From the NCBI RefSeq assembly GCF_902652985.1, contig NW_022982794.1, positions 1-64,000 on the forward strand: a stretch of DNA of 64,000 nt, given 5' to 3'. Source of the DNA: Pecten maximus. Lineage: Eukaryota. Below the pieces are notes generated by a model. It was not told where the DNA came from. It did no database searches and saw nothing but the letters and a program-made list of their open reading frames with translations. The position numbers were made by a program, and so were the translations under genes. This document shows, one piece after another, positions 8,095-40,300 of the stretch. How positions within the stretch are numbered: position 1 is the first letter of the stretch; each line of letters opens with the position of its first letter.

Positions 8095-10631
8095 TTAGTG
8101 TACAGAAGTATAAATATTTGTTTCTTTTTTAGGAAAAACTTTAACAAGATGATCGTACAAAGGGTTATCTAACTTCCACAACCCCCTCATCATCGATGCG
8201 CGTATCTTTGCCAGGTCTAAAATAGATTCCTCGTCATTAGTAATTATGGTTGTGATGTCATACTTACCTCCTGTTGTCTCTACGTACTGTTTTACATGAC
8301 GTTCACACTCAGTGAACCAGTATACATCTGATGTCTTTCTGGCTATGTGATGTAGACAATGGTACCCACGGTTATCTACAGCTGTAGTTAGTGCTGGATA
8401 CAACTTACACAGCTCTAAACTAAGCTCCCTGAATCCCCTCTCACAACTACAATGTAATATTGTCCACCCGTCGTTATCTATAGCTGTAATTAGTGCTGGA
8501 TACAACTTACACAGCTCTAAACTAAGCTCCCTGTGTCCCCTCTCACAACTACAATGTAATATTGTCTGCCCCTTGTTAGTTACAGCTGCAGTAAGTGCTG
8601 GATACAACTTACACAGCTCTAAACTAAGCTCCCTGTGTCCACTTATACAAATACAATGTAATATTGTCTGCCTGCCGTTACCTACAGCTGTAGTCAGTGC
8701 TGGATACAACTTACACAGGTATAAACTAAGCTCCCTGTGTCCCATCCAACAACTACAATGTAACACTGTCCATCTTGACTTGTCCACTAACTGTGACATG
8801 TACTGTCCACACGCACAACTCCTATGTACCACACGACCATCTTCTGACTCACACTTATGTTGTACATTCTCAACTCTACACAAGGATTTAAGTACCATTC
8901 TCTCCACTGTCTGAAATATACCACAGTTTCCTGTCCGTGCCACAAAATGGAGCGTGCTCTGTCTCCATTTATCAGTCTCATGTACCAATTGTGGATATTT
9001 GTTATACAACATTGTCACCATCTCTTCTCTCTCAAACAAACACACCTCGTGTAGGACATTGATATTCCCAGCATAATCATGTGATGATCGTGACCTGCGT
9101 GCCCTCGCTGTAGGAATGACGTCATATTTCAGTAGTTGACGCAGTAGTTGTACACTCCCACCCTCCACTACACAAAACGGTGTATCATTGTCAGGTGTGA
9201 CACCCACAGAAAGGAGACATGAGACACAATCTTCTAAACCAATAGAGCATGCTCCATTCAACAACGCACATTTTATCAGGTGGCATAAGTTATTGTCATC
9301 CTTCTGACCACTTAGCAAACTAAAAAATCCCCGTAGAAACAGGGTGTCTGTCCATACGTCTAATCTAACTATACAGTCAGATAGTCTATGGGCATCAGAT
9401 TCACACACTGTGAATAAAAGTTTATACAATTCATCCCTGTCCTGTCTGACATCAGATTTACACTCTCTGGCCAAACGTTCATACATACACTTTCTGACCA
9501 AACGTTTATATTTGTCTTTACTACTAGATGATATAACTATTTTGTTAGCTGTGGATTTTGATGTTGATATATAGTGGAGGAACTTTCGGGGACAATTTTC
9601 TATAAACCCAATTTTTGTGTTCTTGCCATACAAAAGGGCAACAGTGTCCTGAACAGAATCATGACAAAATTTGTAAATTGAATCATCATCATCATCATCA
9701 TCATCATCATAATTATCATCATAAAAAGGATGATATTTTCTTTTTGCAACCAGATATTCAAACATTTCTAAACTTTCCCGCAGAGATCTAATTTTGTCTG
9801 CATGATCAAGTTGATTTCCCTGGAAAGCTTCATCAAGCTTTTTCTTGTCAACACTTTCACTGTTTTTAGGATCTAAATCCCCTTTCTTAACCGTCCCATC
9901 ATTGAGAAAGAGAAACAGAAGAGCTGAAAAGTGCTTCTTTGGTAAATTGTTCAAAGTTGTTTTCATGAAAAGAAATGGTTGTTTGAAGAAATTAATCCCC
10001 TGTTTTTTTAAGCCAGGAACATACTTAAAAAGATGACAACACTGCGGAAATCCTATATCTGGGGCAAGCTTGATGATTTCAGATTCCTTTCCATCAGATA
10101 AGTTTTTAATTTCTGGGACATAACTTTCTAAAATGCGTTGTTTTTCTGTGGTTTTTATGCAGTTTTTACCTCTCAAATCAATGGTTTTTTGGTTGAATAA
10201 TTCACATGAATGTAATTGTGTGCTTTTGAAAATCTCATCTCGAACATTTAGTATCAAACAATTGGATCTATTATTGAGTTTCCCACGAAATGTTGACTTA
10301 ATGGAGATTTCCCTTTTCTTTAAATCTTCAGCGATTTCCCCACTAACATCATCAATATATACAGCTAATTGTGTGTTTGGCTCAACAATTTTATCCCATT
10401 TGGCCATGCTGTAAAGCTGGACAGGATCCTTTGACAGTCTGGTATCCTTATTATCGCCGTCCATTAGCCACTTTAACAGTTGGTAACCCATCAAAGTCTT
10501 CCCATCCCCTGAGGCACCCTTGATGAGGACAATGTTGTTCTTTCTGATCATTTCTTTAGCGTCTTCCAAAGCTTGTATAGAGATCACCTCTGGTTTTAAG
10601 GTTTGAACATCGGTTGTTAATCTTGTTGTTT
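8095..10631 (-). CDS. Terminal exon: STAND P-loop NTPase (nSTAND3-like) plus winged-helix region and ankyrin repeats
   Basis: The 830-aa ORF extends to acceptor ttaatctttctgattgcag|AA. Walker A IVLIKGASGDGKT (GASGDGKT at 10518-10495), Walker B LAVYIDD, sensor LILNVR, GFP (GxP) motif and FCHDS winged-helix motif are present. Ankyrin motifs include INVLHEVC, STLHFVARTG and TILHCSCERGH. Confidence 0.95.
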
Positions 10632-22600: not shown

Positions 22601-23927
22601 TGTGATATGTTTTCCGTACTATACCTACAGCATTTCACACAATATCGCAAACTAAGTACATAGTGATAAGAATTATAAATGACGTGAAGTTATATAATAT
22701 CAATAACCTTTACATAATTATTTTTCGGTAGGGGAATGCTAAATATTATCCTTTCTTTATTAGGCGTTTTCGGGTTCGTCATTACATTTCAGTGAGTATT
22801 AATATTATCTTATTAGTTTACTTATTTTCTATTTATTTCTGCAGATGAGTTGAAGATGTAAACGACAGACAAGTGCTATTCGTATTGTAATTAAGACCCC
22901 TGTCGGATTGATAGGGTATGTACATTGTATTTTGTTAATGTACGTTTCGTAAATTAAACATGATGTATGTTAACCAAGATTATAGATAGTGTAATTCAAC
23001 ATTAACAGAATGATACAATGTATATACAATGTACATATATATAACTTAGCAACACAAATGACGAAGGAAGACAAGTTTTTGACTCATGCCTTGACCGGGC
23101 CGCGAACTCACGATCTACGGCACCCAATCGCCTAGCCAGAAATACCCGCAGCTTATACCGCTGCGCCACATCGGCGTTCTTAAAAAAGAACGTTTCAATG
23201 GTGCAGTGATGGTCGGCCCGATACCCTGACATGATTATTGTCGATGTCGTCTATAAGATGATATGAATACCTGGATCGCAATGTATTTACATATATACGT
23301 GTTGGTGATCCGTAGATATAGATTTGAATTTCCGAGGGAAGTACAATGTACATATATATATATATATTATCCAGTCGTGATGTTAATTTGTCAAAGTTAT
23401 TTGGAATTTGTATTTGATAAAGTATATATCTCATGAAGTGTACATGCATATCACAGACTAGTTTCTAGTTTTCATCATACTTGTCCTAATATTTTGTATT
23501 TCTGTTATTGTAGGGATTTCTTTATGCTTTAATGCTTTAATGGAATATCAGTATCGCTGTAATAAATCAATATAGAGCTGACCCGGCTACATCTGTGTTA
23601 TCTACATATTTTTTTGTGGGCATATGAAAATACACTAATGAAGTTTTCTGTCTCTGAAGAATTAAATGTTTATGTTTGATAGTATGTCATGGTATTGGAC
23701 AAAGATTATAATAAATCATACTGCCATCAAGTGATCATGAAATAGCGGTAGATACCTGTAAAGCGACACCAGAGCCATCCAAATATTATAACAGCCACCG
23801 TACAAACACCTAAAGCCCATCCATTGCTTGTTAGGTCTGGTAACGAAGATCCATTCTCAGAGTCAGACAGCACCATTTGTACTCCATATGTGATCAACAC
23901 CAAGGACACAAGGAAAATTGCCTTCAT
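8095..23927 (-). CDS. Spliced gene: signal peptide/TM - Ig - DZIP3-type HEPN - coiled coil - STAND (nSTAND3-like) NTPase - ankyrin repeat protein, ~1251 aa
   Basis: join(23927-23756, 21281-20982, 20536-19928, 17696-17643, 16284-16201, 10631-8095) = 172+300+609+54+84+2537 = 3756 nt. It is a single open frame and every junction is GT-AG, phase 1. Exon joining is a prediction without transcript data. Confidence 0.78.
8340..8787 (-). repeat. Coding 102-bp (34-aa) near-identical ankyrin repeat array, 4 full units plus 1 partial
   Basis: Units start at 8787, 8685, 8583, 8481 and 8379, with a near-invariant RELSL(E/Y)LCKLYPAL core. Confidence 0.95.
10834..13590. repeat. ~83-bp diverged tandem repeat split by the 11031-13435 insertion
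   Basis: a(g/a)ccagtc...gcagtcacaa...ctaa units at ~10835, 10917 and 11001, resuming at ~13440-13590. Confidence 0.75.
11031..13435. mobile_element. Non-autonomous TIR DNA transposon (foldback-like, superfamily unassigned)
   Basis: Left end ccggtgtagtatggtattttga; the right end reverse-complements to caggtgtagcatggtattttga. It has many internal ggtaaagtgacccc / ggggtcactttacc motifs and poly-G/C runs, and no transposase ORF. Confidence 0.85.
14527..14556 (-). CDS. Candidate 30-nt phase 1-1 micro-exon (G)RNPKLRAVI of the same gene
   Basis: ccttgtgttttacag|GAAGGAATCCTAAGTTGAGAGCTGTGATAG|gtgagt. It is frame-preserving and stop-free in the gene's phase. Confidence 0.45.
15207..15845 (+). mobile_element. 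HINE-like element related to the 156-bp array family
   Basis: Starts acaagaggcc...cactcacctg, contains caccatttatgcaaaatctgttccccttcccc (reverse complement of the 1-2540 unit), and ends ...ggtgagctaaaaa. Confidence 0.7.
16201..16284 (-). CDS. 84-nt exon, coiled-coil linker (GTVAAVNEDVNAVKEDVSAMKQSSSTNG)
   Basis: cttatttttaag|GC...GGAG|gtatga; phase 1-1; heptad pattern V-AAV-NEDV-NAV-KEDV. Confidence 0.85.
16298..17650. repeat. 69-72 bp tandem repeat (~19 copies) filling intron 16285-17642; each unit carries a copy of the exon end and 5' splice site
   Basis: Unit catcctacatatcatacctcttaggttatctatgtctgttgtcacacgtgtacaatcattttatgttagaa. On the minus strand it contains CTAAGAG|GTATGA, identical to the true junction at 17643/17642. 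Confidence 0.95.
17643..17696 (-). CDS. 54-nt exon, coiled-coil linker (GEIGDIKDQITKDREKLR)
   Basis: gttcttttttag|GG...AGAG|gtatga; phase 1-1; open frame. Confidence 0.85.
19137..19628 (+). mobile_element. Diverged HINE-like element
   Basis: Starts aacaaaaggcccaatggacc, has ~3 internal repeats (caaggtcattcatttgaacaaacttggt...), and ends ggtcacttgtccttcaggcaggtgaactaaaaa. Confidence 0.65.
19928..20536 (-). CDS. 609-nt exon encoding a DZIP3-type HEPN domain
   Basis: catttttcag|CA...GAAG|gtaagc. Motifs STKETTNYARICRLVVDV, DFDIPLLYILLRNL, PHRKGWG and NIERLRIQRNEAYGH (R-x5-H at 20138-20118). Confidence 0.92.
20982..21281 (-). CDS. 300-nt exon encoding an immunoglobulin (I-set-like) domain
   Basis: ctttaaattttcag|AT...GAAG|gtaaca. 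Sequence EPTVEI..VKVGQQAELRCSV...VTW...HLIINKTVKSDEGEYVCTVSS carries the canonical C, W and DxGxYxC. Confidence 0.93.
23756..23927 (-). CDS. Probable first coding exon: signal peptide, ~14-aa stub and transmembrane helix
   Basis: Acceptor cattacag| precedes 23935 and the ATG is at 23927. Translation MKAIFLVSLVLITYGVQMVLS-DSENGSSLPDLTSN-GWALGVCTVAVIIFGWLWC-RFT, ending ACAG|gtatct in phase 1 compatible with the Ig exon. Confidence 0.7.
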
Positions 23928-35590: not shown

Positions 35591-36821
35591 TCAAGGTGTG
35601 ATTTGATTCAGAGTTGGTATATTTTTTAAAATAGAATAATCATGTGTATTCAAATCGGGGACGTATAAAGCCTTCGTTACCTATATGAACAGACGTTTGT
35701 GTATGCGTGTTTACGTGTGTGGATGTTTGTGTGTGTATATGTGAGGGTTTGTGGATGAGTGTGTAACCAGATCGACGGAATACAAACAATTTGGGTAAAT
35801 ATATGTTTAAAACACAGTTAAACAGGTGAGAAGCACATTTACTTTTTTTAATCGCTTTTCGTTAATCGACGTATCAAACATTCCTCTTCCTCTTTGCTGT
35901 CAATACTCCTCCTAGTTTTACAATACATTATTTGAGTATGTTAATAATCATAGATAATAATTCGGCTTTTAATGTCAACATCGAGCGAACACGCTTCTCC
36001 TTATTCTCTCTGTCCCGGGTCTGTAAACACTAACGTTTATGTCTCTGCTTGCTTTGTCAAATCGCTTTCTTTCGAACCTTCTGCGTTTCAATGAAACACT
36101 TGTTAAATGTCTGATTGTATTTGTTAATTCAGATTTCTAAACTCTGCACGCTTACCGCGCCATAAAGTGTAGACATGCCGACTACTTGGCCTACCTAACC
36201 AGTTTCTGTAAACTAACCTGGCCACCGTCGTATTGTTGATACAGATGTACACAGAAAAAATCAGTTACCAATCGTGTAACCTTTGCAACAGTGATAACAA
36301 AGCAGAAAATTGTGCAACAAACCGTGAAGGTAGTGATTAACGTCATCGGGGTTTAAATACCTGTATTTAATCATTCAGTTGGTATCTTATCTTTTTTTCG
36401 TATTAGGTTCTCTATCGTGGATATATGAATCTTGTGTGTGTATGATATGTAACATATTTTGGGGTAACAACGAAAACCTTACTTTGGTGCGATACATGAG
36501 TGTATTTGGTTATATTACATACCTGTATTGTAGACGGAGGGGTCACGAGTTGTAATGGTAATAAAGGACATTCTGGATTGGAAGAGGGTATGGAAAGGGA
36601 GAAAACTAGAGTTGAAGTGGGAATAAAGGGCACTCTAGAGTGGGAGAGAGCATGAAAAGGGAGGGGACAAGAGTTGTAGGTGGACATAAATGTAACCCTA
36701 GAGGAGTAGAGGTATGCAAGGTTGTTCTTTTTAATTCAATTTGTGTGCTACTGGACAATATCCTGAACCTTTACCAACTGGTTATTGTGAAGAAGTAATT
36801 GAAAGATTTAACACCTTATCA

Positions 36822-37321
36822 NNNNNNNNNNNNNNNNNNNNNNNNNNNNNNNNNNNNNNNNNNNNNNNNNNNNNNNNNNNNNNNNNNNNNNNNNNNNNNN
36901 NNNNNNNNNNNNNNNNNNNNNNNNNNNNNNNNNNNNNNNNNNNNNNNNNNNNNNNNNNNNNNNNNNNNNNNNNNNNNNNNNNNNNNNNNNNNNNNNNNNN
37001 NNNNNNNNNNNNNNNNNNNNNNNNNNNNNNNNNNNNNNNNNNNNNNNNNNNNNNNNNNNNNNNNNNNNNNNNNNNNNNNNNNNNNNNNNNNNNNNNNNNN
37101 NNNNNNNNNNNNNNNNNNNNNNNNNNNNNNNNNNNNNNNNNNNNNNNNNNNNNNNNNNNNNNNNNNNNNNNNNNNNNNNNNNNNNNNNNNNNNNNNNNNN
37201 NNNNNNNNNNNNNNNNNNNNNNNNNNNNNNNNNNNNNNNNNNNNNNNNNNNNNNNNNNNNNNNNNNNNNNNNNNNNNNNNNNNNNNNNNNNNNNNNNNNN
37301 NNNNNNNNNNNNNNNNNNNNN
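36822..37321. other. Assembly gap (500 N)
   Basis: Run of 500 n. Confidence 1.
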
Positions 37322-40300
37322 AATATGATCAACGCACACAATTAACGTATTTCGTATTCTATACAAAGCATTTTGCGATGTTCTGTTACAAATACTCCCA
37401 TGCGGTTTTTTGTTTCGGAAGCTCTGATTTTGGGAAATGAGATGCGCTGGCTCGATTTATAGAGCAAGTGTTAATGTCCATGTTTTGATATTGGTGTTCT
37501 TTAGTATCAAGTCGGCAAAGAAACGAACAAACGTTGATAGACGAATGCAATGAATCATTATTAATTCAAATAAAATGTATAGATGTTTTACAAAGGCATT
37601 CTGTATCGTGTAGAAGGTTTTCGATTATACATACATATTTGTAGATTTACTCTAGGTAAAACCGACATCAACGTTGCCATAACAGCCGATCAAAGTTACG
37701 ATTACGAATGGATTGACAAGGTAAAATTTGGAGCCTTATACGCAGCATGCCTTTTTCGTAAAACAACATTCTTAAATCGTATTCATTGGTGTTGTTTTAT
37801 CATAGCAATTGAAACAAAAGAAAACCAACAAAAGCATTTAAAAAAAAACAACAAAAAAACAATGAAACATTTTCGTGTGACGTCATCGGAATGTACAAGT
37901 TGCAACAATGTACAATAGTATACATTTTACATAATTAATACTTAGGAACATAATGGGTTGCAATATTTACTCAGTTGTGTTATTCAAGTTTGTAAACTCT
38001 ACGCCTACCCAGACAGAATGTATAGATCTCCCGGCTGGTATTGTGTAGACCTGCCCGGCCACTTTAGGTAAACTTACCCGACCAGTTTATTGTGCAGATG
38101 GGCGTATACGAAAAATATTCATAACATGCAATGTAACCTTACCACCATAGTTATTAAAGACGTAGATTGTGCAGTAGGCCGTTAAGGTAGCGATTAACGG
38201 GGATGGAGATGCTCTGGATAATTATGAAAGTATGTACTTTGGATAGATACTCCCGTGTATTCGGTAATACCAAACGTAAGTTAAGTGGGTAGATACTCCC
38301 GTGTTTTCGGTAATACCAAACGCAAGTTAAGTGGGTAGATACACTTGTGTATTCGGTAATACCAAACGTAAGTTAAGTGGGTAGATACTCCCGTGTATTC
38401 GGTAATACCAAACGTAAGTTAAGTGGGTAGATACTCCCGTGTATTCGGTAATACCAAACGTAAGTTAAGTGGGTAGATACACCCGTGTATTCGGTAATAC
38501 CGAACGTAAGTTAAGTGGGTAGTTACTCCCGTGTATTCGGTAATACCAAACGTAAGTTAAGTGGGTAGACAATCCCGTGTATTCGGTAATACCGAACGTA
38601 AGTTAAGTGGGTAGTTACTCCCGTGTATTCGGTAATACCAAACGCAAGTTAAGTTGGTAGATACACTTGTGGATTGGGAACTCAGAGATACCTAAACTTT
38701 GGGAAAATACACCTGTGTTCAGGGTAATATCATATGCCTGTACTGTATGTAGATATACCGGTGTATTGGGTAAAAAGACTTAAATGTACTGTTGGTAGAT
38801 ACACCTGTGTATTGGGTAATAAGACATACCTGTACTGAGGGTAGATACACCTGTGTCTTGGGTTATAAGATATACCTGCACTGTGGGTAGATAACTTGTG
38901 TATTAGGTTAGAAGACATACCTGTACTGTGGGTAGATACACCTGTGTAATGGGTGATAAGACATATCTATACTGCGGGTAAATACACCTGTGTAATAAAT
39001 TATGACATACCTGTACTGTTGGTAGATATACCTGTGTATTATGTTATAAGACATACCTGTACTGTGGGTAGATACACCTGTGTATTGGGTCATAATACAT
39101 ACCTGTACTGAGGTAAGATAACCTGTGTATTGGGTTATACGATATACCTGAACTGTTGGTAGATACACCTGTGTATTGGGTTATAAGACATACATGTACT
39201 GTGGGTAGATACACCTGTGTCAAGGTGTGATTTGATTCAGAGTTGGTATATTTTTTAAAATAGAATAATCATGTGTATTCAAATCGGGGACGTATACAGC
39301 CTTCGTTACCTATATGAACAGACGTTTGTGTATGCGTGTTTACGTGTGTGGATGCTTGTGTGTGTATATGTGAGGGTTTGTGGATGAGTGTGTAACCAGA
39401 TCGACGGAATACAAACAATTTGGGTAAATATATGTTTAAAACACAGTTAAACAGGTGAGAAGCACATTTACTTTTTTTAATCGCTTTTCGTTAATCGACG
39501 TATCAAACATTCCTGTTCCTCTTTGCTCTCAATACTCCTCCTAGTTTTACAATACATTATTTGAGTATGTTAATAATCATAGATAATAATTCGGCTTTTA
39601 ATGTCAACATCGAGCGAACACGCCTCTCCTTATTCTCTCTGTCCCGGGTCTGTAAACACTAACGTTTATGTCTCTGCTTGCTTTGTCAAATCGCTTTCTT
39701 TCGAACCTTCTGCGTTTCAATAAAACACTTGTTAAATGTCTGATTGTATTTGTTAATTCAGATTTCTAAACTCTGCACACTTACCCAGCCATAAAGTGTA
39801 GACATGCCGACTACTTGGCCTACCTAACCAGTTTCTGTAAACTAACCTGGCTACCGTCGTATTGTTGATACAGATGTACACAGAAAATATCAGTTACCAA
39901 TCGTGTAACCTTTGCAACAGTGATAACAAAGCAGAAAATTGTGCAACAAACCGTGAAGGTAGTGATTAACGTCATCGGGGTTTAAATACCTGTATTTAAT
40001 CATTCAGTTGGTATCTTATCTTTTTTTCGTATTAGGTACTCTATCGTGGATATATGAATCTTGTGTGTGTATGATATGTAACATATTTTGGGGTAACAAC
40101 GAAAACCTTACTTTGGTGCGATACATGAGTGTATTAGGTTATATTACATACCTGTATTGTAGACGGAGGGATTACGAGTTGTAATGGTAATAAAGGACAT
40201 CCTAGATTGGGAGAGGGTATGGAAAGGGAGAAAACTAGAGTTGAAGTGGGAATAAAGGGCACGCTAGAGTGGGAGAGAGCATGAAAAGGGAGGGGACAAG

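Follow-up and report, generated by a model that had tools for sequence, protein, structure and literature searches.

An array of ankyrin units that are nearly identical except at a handful of positions raises the question of whether those positions are simply free to vary or have been selected to bind different ligands and, if so, in what kind of protein. The array considered here lies on the minus strand of the window, by which we mean the whole 64,000-nucleotide stretch of Pecten maximus DNA that was analyzed (contig NW_022982794.1, positions 1 to 64,000). Tandem repeat detection (TRF) found 3.9 copies of a 102-bp repeat at 8371-8772, with 87% matches and zero indels, inside an open frame of 861 amino acids, and unit alignment resolved these into four full 34-codon units spanning 8784-8377.

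In pairwise comparison the four units are 79 to 90% identical in DNA and 68 to 82% identical in protein, with a mean identity to the array consensus of 0.85. Codons 1-5, 13, and 14, which make up 21 of the 102 bases, hold 16 of the 27 variable bases (hypergeometric P = 7e-8, to be read in light of the fact that this set was picked after looking at the data), and codons 17-29 account for just 6 of the 98 pairwise differences. The original prediction, which described 102-bp near-identical ankyrin units varying at binding-surface positions, is confirmed by TRF and the unit alignment, with corrections. What had been read as a fifth unit from its hairpin, DNRGY, is the C-terminal cap, which is ~33 to 37% identical to the units and lacks the conserved helix-2 stretch. 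The units are near-identical overall, but unit 1 has one difference in that same stretch. Among the helix-1 differences that had been listed, the S/I change at codon 11 falls at a conserved framework site (S in 193 of 199 units across the family described below).

The window protein corresponds to P. maximus LOC117320960 (100% over the 611 residues searched), an uncharacterized 1261-aa RefSeq model referred to below as P0002. The gene has seven exons, the last of which (10631-8095) carries the ankyrin units, and the predicted domain order is membrane anchor, Ig, HEPN, coiled coil, nSTAND3 NTPase, helical domains, and ankyrins (Table 1). Its first three exons are joined at GT-AG sites in contigs of the RNA-like runs X1 and X10, from two studies, and are unjoined in the DNA run X9; the spliced X1 and X10 contigs may derive from an allele or a close paralog. 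No RNA-like contig joins the HEPN exon to the last exon, a join known from the RefSeq model. Contigs of run X19 give the exons no cover; such absence from contigs proves nothing.

TABLE 1 Coordinates of the gene's exons, domains, and repeat units within the window
Feature	Position	Strand	Basis and remarks
First coding exon, two hydrophobic segments (predicted as a signal peptide or signal anchor and, after a short spacer, a transmembrane helix)	23757..23927	-	tblastn of P0002, 100%; segments from Kyte-Doolittle scan only
Immunoglobulin-like exon	20982..21281	-	ORF; Pfam I-set/Ig on P0002; splice joints 21281/23756 and 20536/20982, CT..AC ends
DZIP3/hRUL138-like HEPN exon, R-x5-H motif (putative RNase site)	19928..20536	-	Pfam PF18738, E 4.3e-29; 3' boundary read off sequence
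Small coiled-coil exon	17643..17696	-	RefSeq model P0002 mapped, AG/GT ends
Second coiled-coil exon	16201..16284	-	RefSeq model P0002 mapped, AG/GT ends
30-bp linker exon	14527..14556	-	RefSeq model P0002 mapped, AG/GT ends
Last exon, a single open frame encoding the NTPase, the helical and winged-helix domains, and the ankyrin region and including the stop codon	8095..10631	-	ORF; P0002 mapping
nSTAND3 NTPase domain, Walker A and Walker B intact	10117..10575	-	Pfam PF20720, E 5.1e-22; model
Poly-Asp (ATC)n tract and mosaic breakpoint	9682..9732	-	Locus L027 is followed on the sensor side but not on the NTPase side
N-terminal non-identical ankyrin repeats with cysteine-rich insertion	8785..9063	-	Pfam, model, trees; exchanged jointly with array
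Ankyrin unit 1 of conserved array	8683..8784	-	Unit alignment
Ankyrin unit 2	8581..8682	-	Unit alignment
Ankyrin unit 3	8479..8580	-	Unit alignment
Ankyrin unit 4	8377..8478	-	Unit alignment
C-terminal capping repeat and tail	8098..8376	-	Unit alignment, structure model; the supposed fifth unit begins here

Several repeats of other kinds surround these exons. Where the small coiled-coil exon ends, a 71-bp minisatellite (19 copies, 16301-17649) begins, and it carries copies of that exon's splice-donor sequence along the intron; the collinear gene on C19, taken up below, has the same array, arranged differently. A 156-bp satellite fills 4-2542 (16 copies, 92% matches), with diverged copies within the gene's introns, and several copies of a ~7-kb segment, which contains 46-, 62-, and 16-bp minisatellites, lie between 24500 and 64000. 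There is an assembly gap near 36820-37330, and the copy number of the ~7-kb segment is unlike that in the collinear C19 stretch.

The domains of the last exon are recognized by several independent means. The NTPase region, identified as nSTAND3 by profile, was modeled with a pLDDT of 91.5 and is followed by helical and winged-helix domains; a fold search with it returned Apaf-1, NRC2, NLRP3, NLRP9, and Avs5 (Z 12-13.4). Downstream of the NTPase domain lie motifs that we take to be GxP-like and MHD-like. The ankyrin region matches Pfam Ank_2 (E 1.7e-18), its model has a pLDDT of 86.4 (96-98 in the repeats), and its Foldseek matches are ankyrins and DARPins, with RNase L (PDB 4g8k) among the ankyrin hits. 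Between the N-cap ankyrins and the array, at ~8800-8900, is an insertion rich in cysteine and histidine, possibly a metal-binding loop; it is shared by scallop relatives in conserved form, and the model is of low confidence there (residues 89-107). Farther upstream, the HEPN exon belongs by profile and by its Rx4-6H motif, as defined in the available text of PMC9646362, to the DZIP3-like HEPN RNases. With an effector, a STAND NTPase, and C-terminal repeats in one protein, the gene product is an NLR-like receptor in the broad sense, the splice between HEPN and NTPase being that of the RefSeq model. It is not an NLR in the strict sense, as Pfam found nSTAND3 and ankyrins in the window protein and no NACHT, NB-ARC, or LRR domain; PADLOC gave at most a weak P-loop match.

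Four units are few, and the wider family is more informative. At least 49 related loci, the window gene included, are present in the P. maximus genome, a lower bound given that 40 of 82 candidates were scored in each of two genome DNA searches; of the wider nSTAND3 family, 21 of 192 candidates were scored. The loci cluster on C16, C18, C19, and unplaced contigs, and carry 0 to 32 detected units each, most commonly 4. The frame from P-loop to cap is unbroken in 26 of the 49, suggesting that much of the family is decaying, although some of the others stop at contig ends. The searches yielded 248 units, of which 14 broken or out-of-register ones were dropped; 199 distinct units remained, and 197 of these were used in the selection tests after removal of 2 partial ones. 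Internal conservation is high throughout: of the 35 arrays with at least three units, 17 reach 0.85 identity to their consensus and 34 reach 0.70, the cut-off of PMC13449251, here applied to our own identity measure rather than T-REKS. Variability is concentrated at positions 2, 3, 5, 10, 13, and 14, where entropy is 2.3 to 3.4 bits (at most 1.45 elsewhere) and 14 to 18 amino acids occur at each, giving 183 six-residue combinations among 199 units. The last unit position is near-constant (V in 188 of 199).

The largest array, at L031 (G000:C19:29302600-29310500), has 32 units in an intact 1772-aa frame and repeats every six units (0.5 differences at lag 6), the cassette being repeated more than five times; this is a recent block amplification of a six-unit cassette. 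One L031 unit is identical to a unit of L024, ~580 kb off. N termini among the relatives comprise HEPN, Ig, death-like, CARD, and coiled-coil domains, and two hydrophobic segments were detected by hydropathy scan in 6 of 48 proteins. The exon encoding such segments in the window has 20 matches in the genome. It is joined to NTPases of both lineages defined below (P0002, P0014, P0021), which suggests that this N-terminal module is shuffled too. In three scallop relatives (P0025, P0039, P0043), a second, longer repeat of ~45-50 residues is amplified directly upstream of the ankyrins.

Where the six variable positions fall is suggestive in itself. In the model, positions 2, 3, and 5 are placed in the loop preceding the first helix, and positions 10, 13, and 14 within that helix or at its end; from ankyrin structures and the available text of PMC4986451 and PMC4308713, these positions would form the concave binding face. 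PMC4308713, as far as its accessible text goes, also lists the same six as the most variable in ankyrins generally, so variability by itself proves nothing, and the question becomes one of rates. We estimated these with an MG94-type codon likelihood evaluated on a grid, with branch lengths fixed from FastTree and the script checked by simulation. Across the 197 distinct units, dN/dS is ~4.5-11 at codons 2, 3, 5, 10, 13, and 14, with an excess over 1 at each (p < 1e-9 for codons 10 and 14, p < 2e-4 for 3 and 5, p = 0.008 for 13, and p = 0.049 for 2); sites 7, 16, and 22 are also nominally above 1. Taken as a class, the six codons have a dN/dS of 6 (4 to 8; LRT 93), and when the units are limited to those from intact genes (n = 130) the value is 3.5 (3 to 6). 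The other 28 codons give 0.9 for all units and 0.7 for intact-gene units (framework range, 0.7 to 1.2), and the NTPase is under moderate constraint at 0.6. In the framework, silent and replacement sites are equally conserved, which suggests that its uniformity owes more to homogenization than to purifying selection.

Two position sets from protein engineering were used to avoid choosing sites post hoc. The DARPin randomized set, which we take to be positions 2, 3, 5, 13, 14, and the last, gave a dN/dS of 5 (3.5 to 8). The ANK-N5C library set (2, 3, 5, 10, 13, and 33, according to the available text of PMC4308713) gave 4.5 (4.5 to 6). The six-codon excess was robust to other codon frequencies, to terms for double and triple substitutions (dN/dS stays above 4), and to a tree built without the six codons. 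A tree-free count found 93 amino acids from 142 codons versus 83 expected (P ~0.001); by single site this test is weak, with P < 0.05 at 1 of the 6. The same six positions rank top in variability among 18 Mizuhopecten units with a different framework, as do 4 of the 6 among 7 Ylistrum units. The anticipated positive selection on binding-face codons therefore holds at the family level, across repeats and paralogs, but is undetectable from the four window units alone, which are underpowered (p = 0.15 with the six codons, p = 0.042 with the DARPin set). Codon 10 does not vary in the window array but ranks among the two strongest cases of selection family-wide. Positive selection has acted at six predicted binding-face codons across the family.

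Could these rates arise without selection? A young, unstable unit spreading by unequal crossing-over in a decaying family would leave six exposed positions to drift unconstrained, and a framework dN/dS near 1, the 23 of 49 loci without an unbroken last exon in the stretch fetched, and the general variability of these positions in ankyrins (PMC4308713, available text) all agree with such neutral turnover. Drift, however, predicts a dN/dS of 1 where 4.5-11 was observed, the six codons show no matching rise in synonymous rate, and other exposed positions, in the outer helix and linker, remain near 1 (0.85 to 1.7). In 45 neutral simulations with six hot sites and no, block-wise, or free recombination, none exceeded 2.0, and the top LRT for omega above 1 was 15.4 versus 96 observed. 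Three of the 15 free-recombination runs did pass LRT 3.84 (omega 1.4), so the nominal p-values above are too small under recombination. With the same positions variable in a second genus (Mizuhopecten), we regard purely neutral turnover as very unlikely. Targeted mutagenesis, whether a hotspot or a DGR-like, adenine-directed process, seems scarcely credible as the source of the variable codons. Several of these have an A-rich consensus and some changes are multi-base, but the synonymous rate (0.7 at the six codons versus 0.5 at the other 28) is close to that of the framework, which argues against a hotspot, and dN/dS exceeds 4 even with multi-base terms. A DGR-like process specific to adenine is rejected, as non-A bases vary while framework adenines do not.

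Selection supplies new residues; trees indicate that the sensors carrying them also move. The NTPases split into two deep lineages (100/100 support), both of which contain Pecten as well as Mizuhopecten genes, and grouping them by species is rejected (p-AU 1e-62). Between the lineages, the synonymous difference is 0.68 to 0.70 in the NTPase and 0.60 to 0.66 in the helical part but falls to 0.11 to 0.18 in the N-cap and 0.14 to 0.17 in the unit framework, values no higher than those within the lineage of the window gene. A tree of the array-flanking caps, from which L043 (missed by the pattern matching) and L029 (a near-copy of L028) were left out, separates 5 Mizuhopecten genes of both lineages from 24 Pecten genes (SH-aLRT 98) and rejects holding each NTPase lineage together (p-AU 0.004); a further tree was built without the window protein and several others, which the pattern matching had likewise missed. 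The NTPase lineages are thus older than the divergence of Pecten and Mizuhopecten, whereas the sensor ends cluster by species, from which it follows that sensors move between genes. The sequences indicate that the caps flanking the array move together with it, likely through gene conversion and unequal crossing-over. At the level of units, the nearest unit lies in another locus for 132 of 214, including all four window units, lies in the same locus for 65, and is tied for 17; evidence that linkage decays with distance within the unit is marginal (P 0.05). Membership in a concertedly evolving family with exchange between paralogs is clear from these data. The repeat shuffling originally proposed is supported by the trees, the nearest-unit counts, and the breakpoint described next, with the difference that it is not confined to the window array and runs largely between genes.

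The window gene itself appears to be a product of such exchange. Its unplaced 100-kb contig is collinear with C19:27.59-27.72 Mb. The 5' introns and exons match L049 (C19:27.592-27.609) at 94 to 97%, a frameshifted locus whose four units are quite unlike those of the window, while the sensor and 3' flank match L027, a six-unit gene 135 kb away, mostly at 84 to 98%. Informative sites switch between 9729 and 9732, favoring L027 by 160:27 on the sensor side versus 34:42 on the NTPase side (permutation test, 0/2000). The poly-Asp tract next to the switch (9682-9722, winged-helix region) varies widely in length among lineage-A paralogs. By this sequence evidence the gene is apparently a mosaic of two neighbors with a switch near 9730, a reading that rests on one assembly in which a mis-join is possible, and the contig is either a second haplotype or a further tandem copy. 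Repeat number differs among loci; the collinear C19 gene likewise has four units, all different from those of the window. The rest of the contig (C3665, 64-100 kb) contains only Ig and HEPN exons and no NTPase-ankyrin exon, hence no second array to compare. Short-read contigs on the last exon include joints skipping 206 to 308 bases, compatible with arrays of fewer units, in contigs that mix many paralogs and cannot be assigned to a locus.

The Pecten data all derive from a single assembly, and repeats this similar are prone to misassembly, so collapsed or mis-joined repeats have to be weighed as the source of the copy-number range, the shared units, and the mosaic gene. The unplaced contig with its collinear counterpart, the noisy locus L053, the identical units in L022/L025, L028/L029, and L039/L040, and a 32-unit array known from the assembly alone would all be expected of such an artifact. 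Unit differences, however, are in-frame codon changes at the same six sites, the window sensor is 88 to 98% identical to L027 rather than identical, and both the species-level grouping and the variable sites recur in the independent Mizuhopecten assembly. We consider an assembly artifact extremely unlikely as a general explanation.

What, then, would such a protein do? In STAND receptors, the repeat domain holds the ADP-bound NTPase closed until a ligand arrives. If the scallop protein works like Apaf-1, plant NLRs, and bacterial Avs5, the ankyrin groove would bind a ligand in the cytosol that marks non-self or damage, upon which the NTPase would swap ADP for ATP and oligomerize, and the HEPN domains, whose R-x5-H motif is intact, would pair into an RNase and the cell be shut down or killed. 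The hydrophobic N terminus may tether this copy to the membrane with the other domains all cytosolic, as judged from the hydropathy scan. Near-identical frameworks would permit recombination of units and entire sensor ends, both inside a gene and from one gene to another, selection would maintain new residues at hairpin positions 2, 3, and 5 and inner-helix positions 10, 13, and 14, and each fresh unit combination would create a new concave surface with renewed specificity.

We consider it likely, taken as a whole, that the array is the ligand sensor of an NLR-like immune switch in a family with positive selection at six codons and sensor ends that group by species. Its parts differ in strength: the evolutionary regime is highly probable, an immune-sensor role, argued by analogy, is fairly probable, and HEPN RNase as the output, also by analogy, stands at about even chances. 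The "recognition repertoire" of the original prediction is something we infer, with a ligand that is postulated. The same regime could instead be aimed at a self target, in allorecognition, gamete recognition, or transmissible-cancer surveillance, as with fungal het genes, or in guarding a host protein. The characterized fungal NLRs with high internal conservation (HIC) serve allorecognition, according to the available text of PMC13449251, and a predicted membrane anchor would suit a role in cell contact; the ankyrins, however, are predicted to be cytosolic, and a putative RNase effector with dozens of scattered, fast-dying copies better fits anti-viral conflict (PMC9646362 and PMC8195603, in the parts available). 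A self target thus appears unlikely, and pathogen sensing is favored over allorecognition by effector type and birth-and-death pattern. A bolder version of the immune reading would make this an anticipatory intracellular receptor system, in which dozens of genes share a common stock of exchangeable ankyrin cassettes (a naturally occurring DARPin library with an RNase kill switch) that is shuffled both in the germ line and in hemocytes, giving each animal a somatically varied repertoire with a logic like that of lamprey VLRs; we hold this to be highly improbable.

How animals without antibodies keep up with fast-changing pathogens is a long-standing question. To our knowledge, the candidates in bivalves have so far been mostly extracellular lectins and gene presence-absence. 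The pathogen-sensing reading offers a concrete, measurable intracellular mechanism, with a single-exon, PCR-amplifiable sensor, six defined specificity codons, and sensor exchange between anciently diverged switches, and it supplies markers for aquaculture studies of disease resistance as well as naturally occurring ankyrin binders. We examined 136 further homologs, 9 of which contain a stretch of 100 residues with 60% or more identity at ankyrin periods; they come from Ylistrum, oyster, abalone, freshwater mussels, and a vent snail. Such related conserved-repeat nSTAND3-ankyrin proteins suggest that the system may be mollusc-wide. Three freshwater mussel nSTAND3 proteins (P0125, P0155, P0173) have very long arrays of a two-unit (67-residue) ankyrin repeat, with up to 97% internal identity and similar variable positions.

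The closest parallel is with the fungal HIC NLRs (Podospora NWD/het-e WD40 genes and the NACHT-ANK gene Pa_3_8560), for which the published sources are cited here from their available text. Podospora NLRs have conserved ANK repeats with length polymorphism and five selected positions (Dyrka 2014, PMC4986451). Both systems share the order of effector, STAND, and repeats, near-identical repeats, a few selected positions on the ankyrin inner helix and hairpin, a variable repeat number, and exchange among paralogs with divergent NTPases. The comparison with fungal NLRs originally drawn thus captured the regime, while the host is a scallop, not a fungus; the NTPase is nSTAND3 rather than NACHT or NB-ARC; and the N termini are HEPN, Ig, death-like, or CARD, some with a predicted membrane anchor. 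Allelic length polymorphism is documented for fungi, whereas scallop repeat number was compared among loci only. Conserved repeats with ATPases including nSTAND3 occur in animals, as judged from architecture alone in the accessible part of the GBE 2026 paper (PMC13449251), and our results extend the fungal regime to an animal with codon-level and tree-level support. They also add between-gene ankyrin exchange, which the same text expected but did not observe: it describes the three Podospora ANK genes as "well differentiated and non-overlapping" and reports exchange only for WD40 and TPR, unlike the scallop family, in which dozens of loci draw on one unit pool and caps travel with the array. 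We found no account of this scallop family in a literature search largely outside subscription papers; examples of molluscan nSTAND3-ANK proteins may appear in the supplement and Fig. 8c of PMC13449251.

Bivalve and cnidarian HEPN(DZIP3)-NACHT proteins (Takeuchi 2022, PMC9646362; Emery 2021, PMC8260672) share the HEPN family, the Rx4-6H motif, and its location at the N terminus of a STAND protein, along with large expansions and haplotype-variable clusters enriched in HEPN and Ig domains. They differ in pairing NACHT with LRR, TPR, or WD40 sensors; the word ankyrin is absent from the available pearl-oyster text, and the accessible parts of these papers hold no repeat-level analysis of selection or exchange. 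Bivalve HEPN-NACHT expansions and combinations of HEPN, STAND, and ankyrin domains are noted in PMC9646362 and PMC8195603, as far as available. Engineered libraries (DARPins and ANK-N5C; PMC4308713 and PMC8683736, in part) resemble the scallop array in having a constant framework with caps at both ends, and 5 of the 6 ANK-N5C randomized positions (2, 3, 5, 10, and 13) are among the six selected in the scallop, whose natural 34-residue unit differs in that position 14 is variable and the last position is not. Bacterial Avs5 (Sir2-nSTAND3-TPR/Sel1/PPR; bioRxiv 2025.07.08.663546; PDB 9jap, 9nc9) has the same PF20720 NTPase in a tripartite anti-viral sensor of effector, NTPase, and repeats, with an NADase effector, other repeat types, and, in the text available, no reported high internal conservation. 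The window NTPase model superposes on Avs5 with Z 12.3 and an rmsd of 3.4 to 4.0 over 182 residues, a likeness between a model and a structure that is similarity and no proof of descent. RNase L is an ankyrin sensor controlling an RNase in animal innate immunity, a single conserved gene with a fixed nucleotide ligand and a pseudokinase; it differs from the scallop family in having that pseudokinase instead of STAND and no diversifying repeats. In sum, the regime is known from fungi, and what is new is an animal nSTAND3 family, a pool of sensors common to old NTPase lineages, and a predicted membrane-anchored HEPN form.
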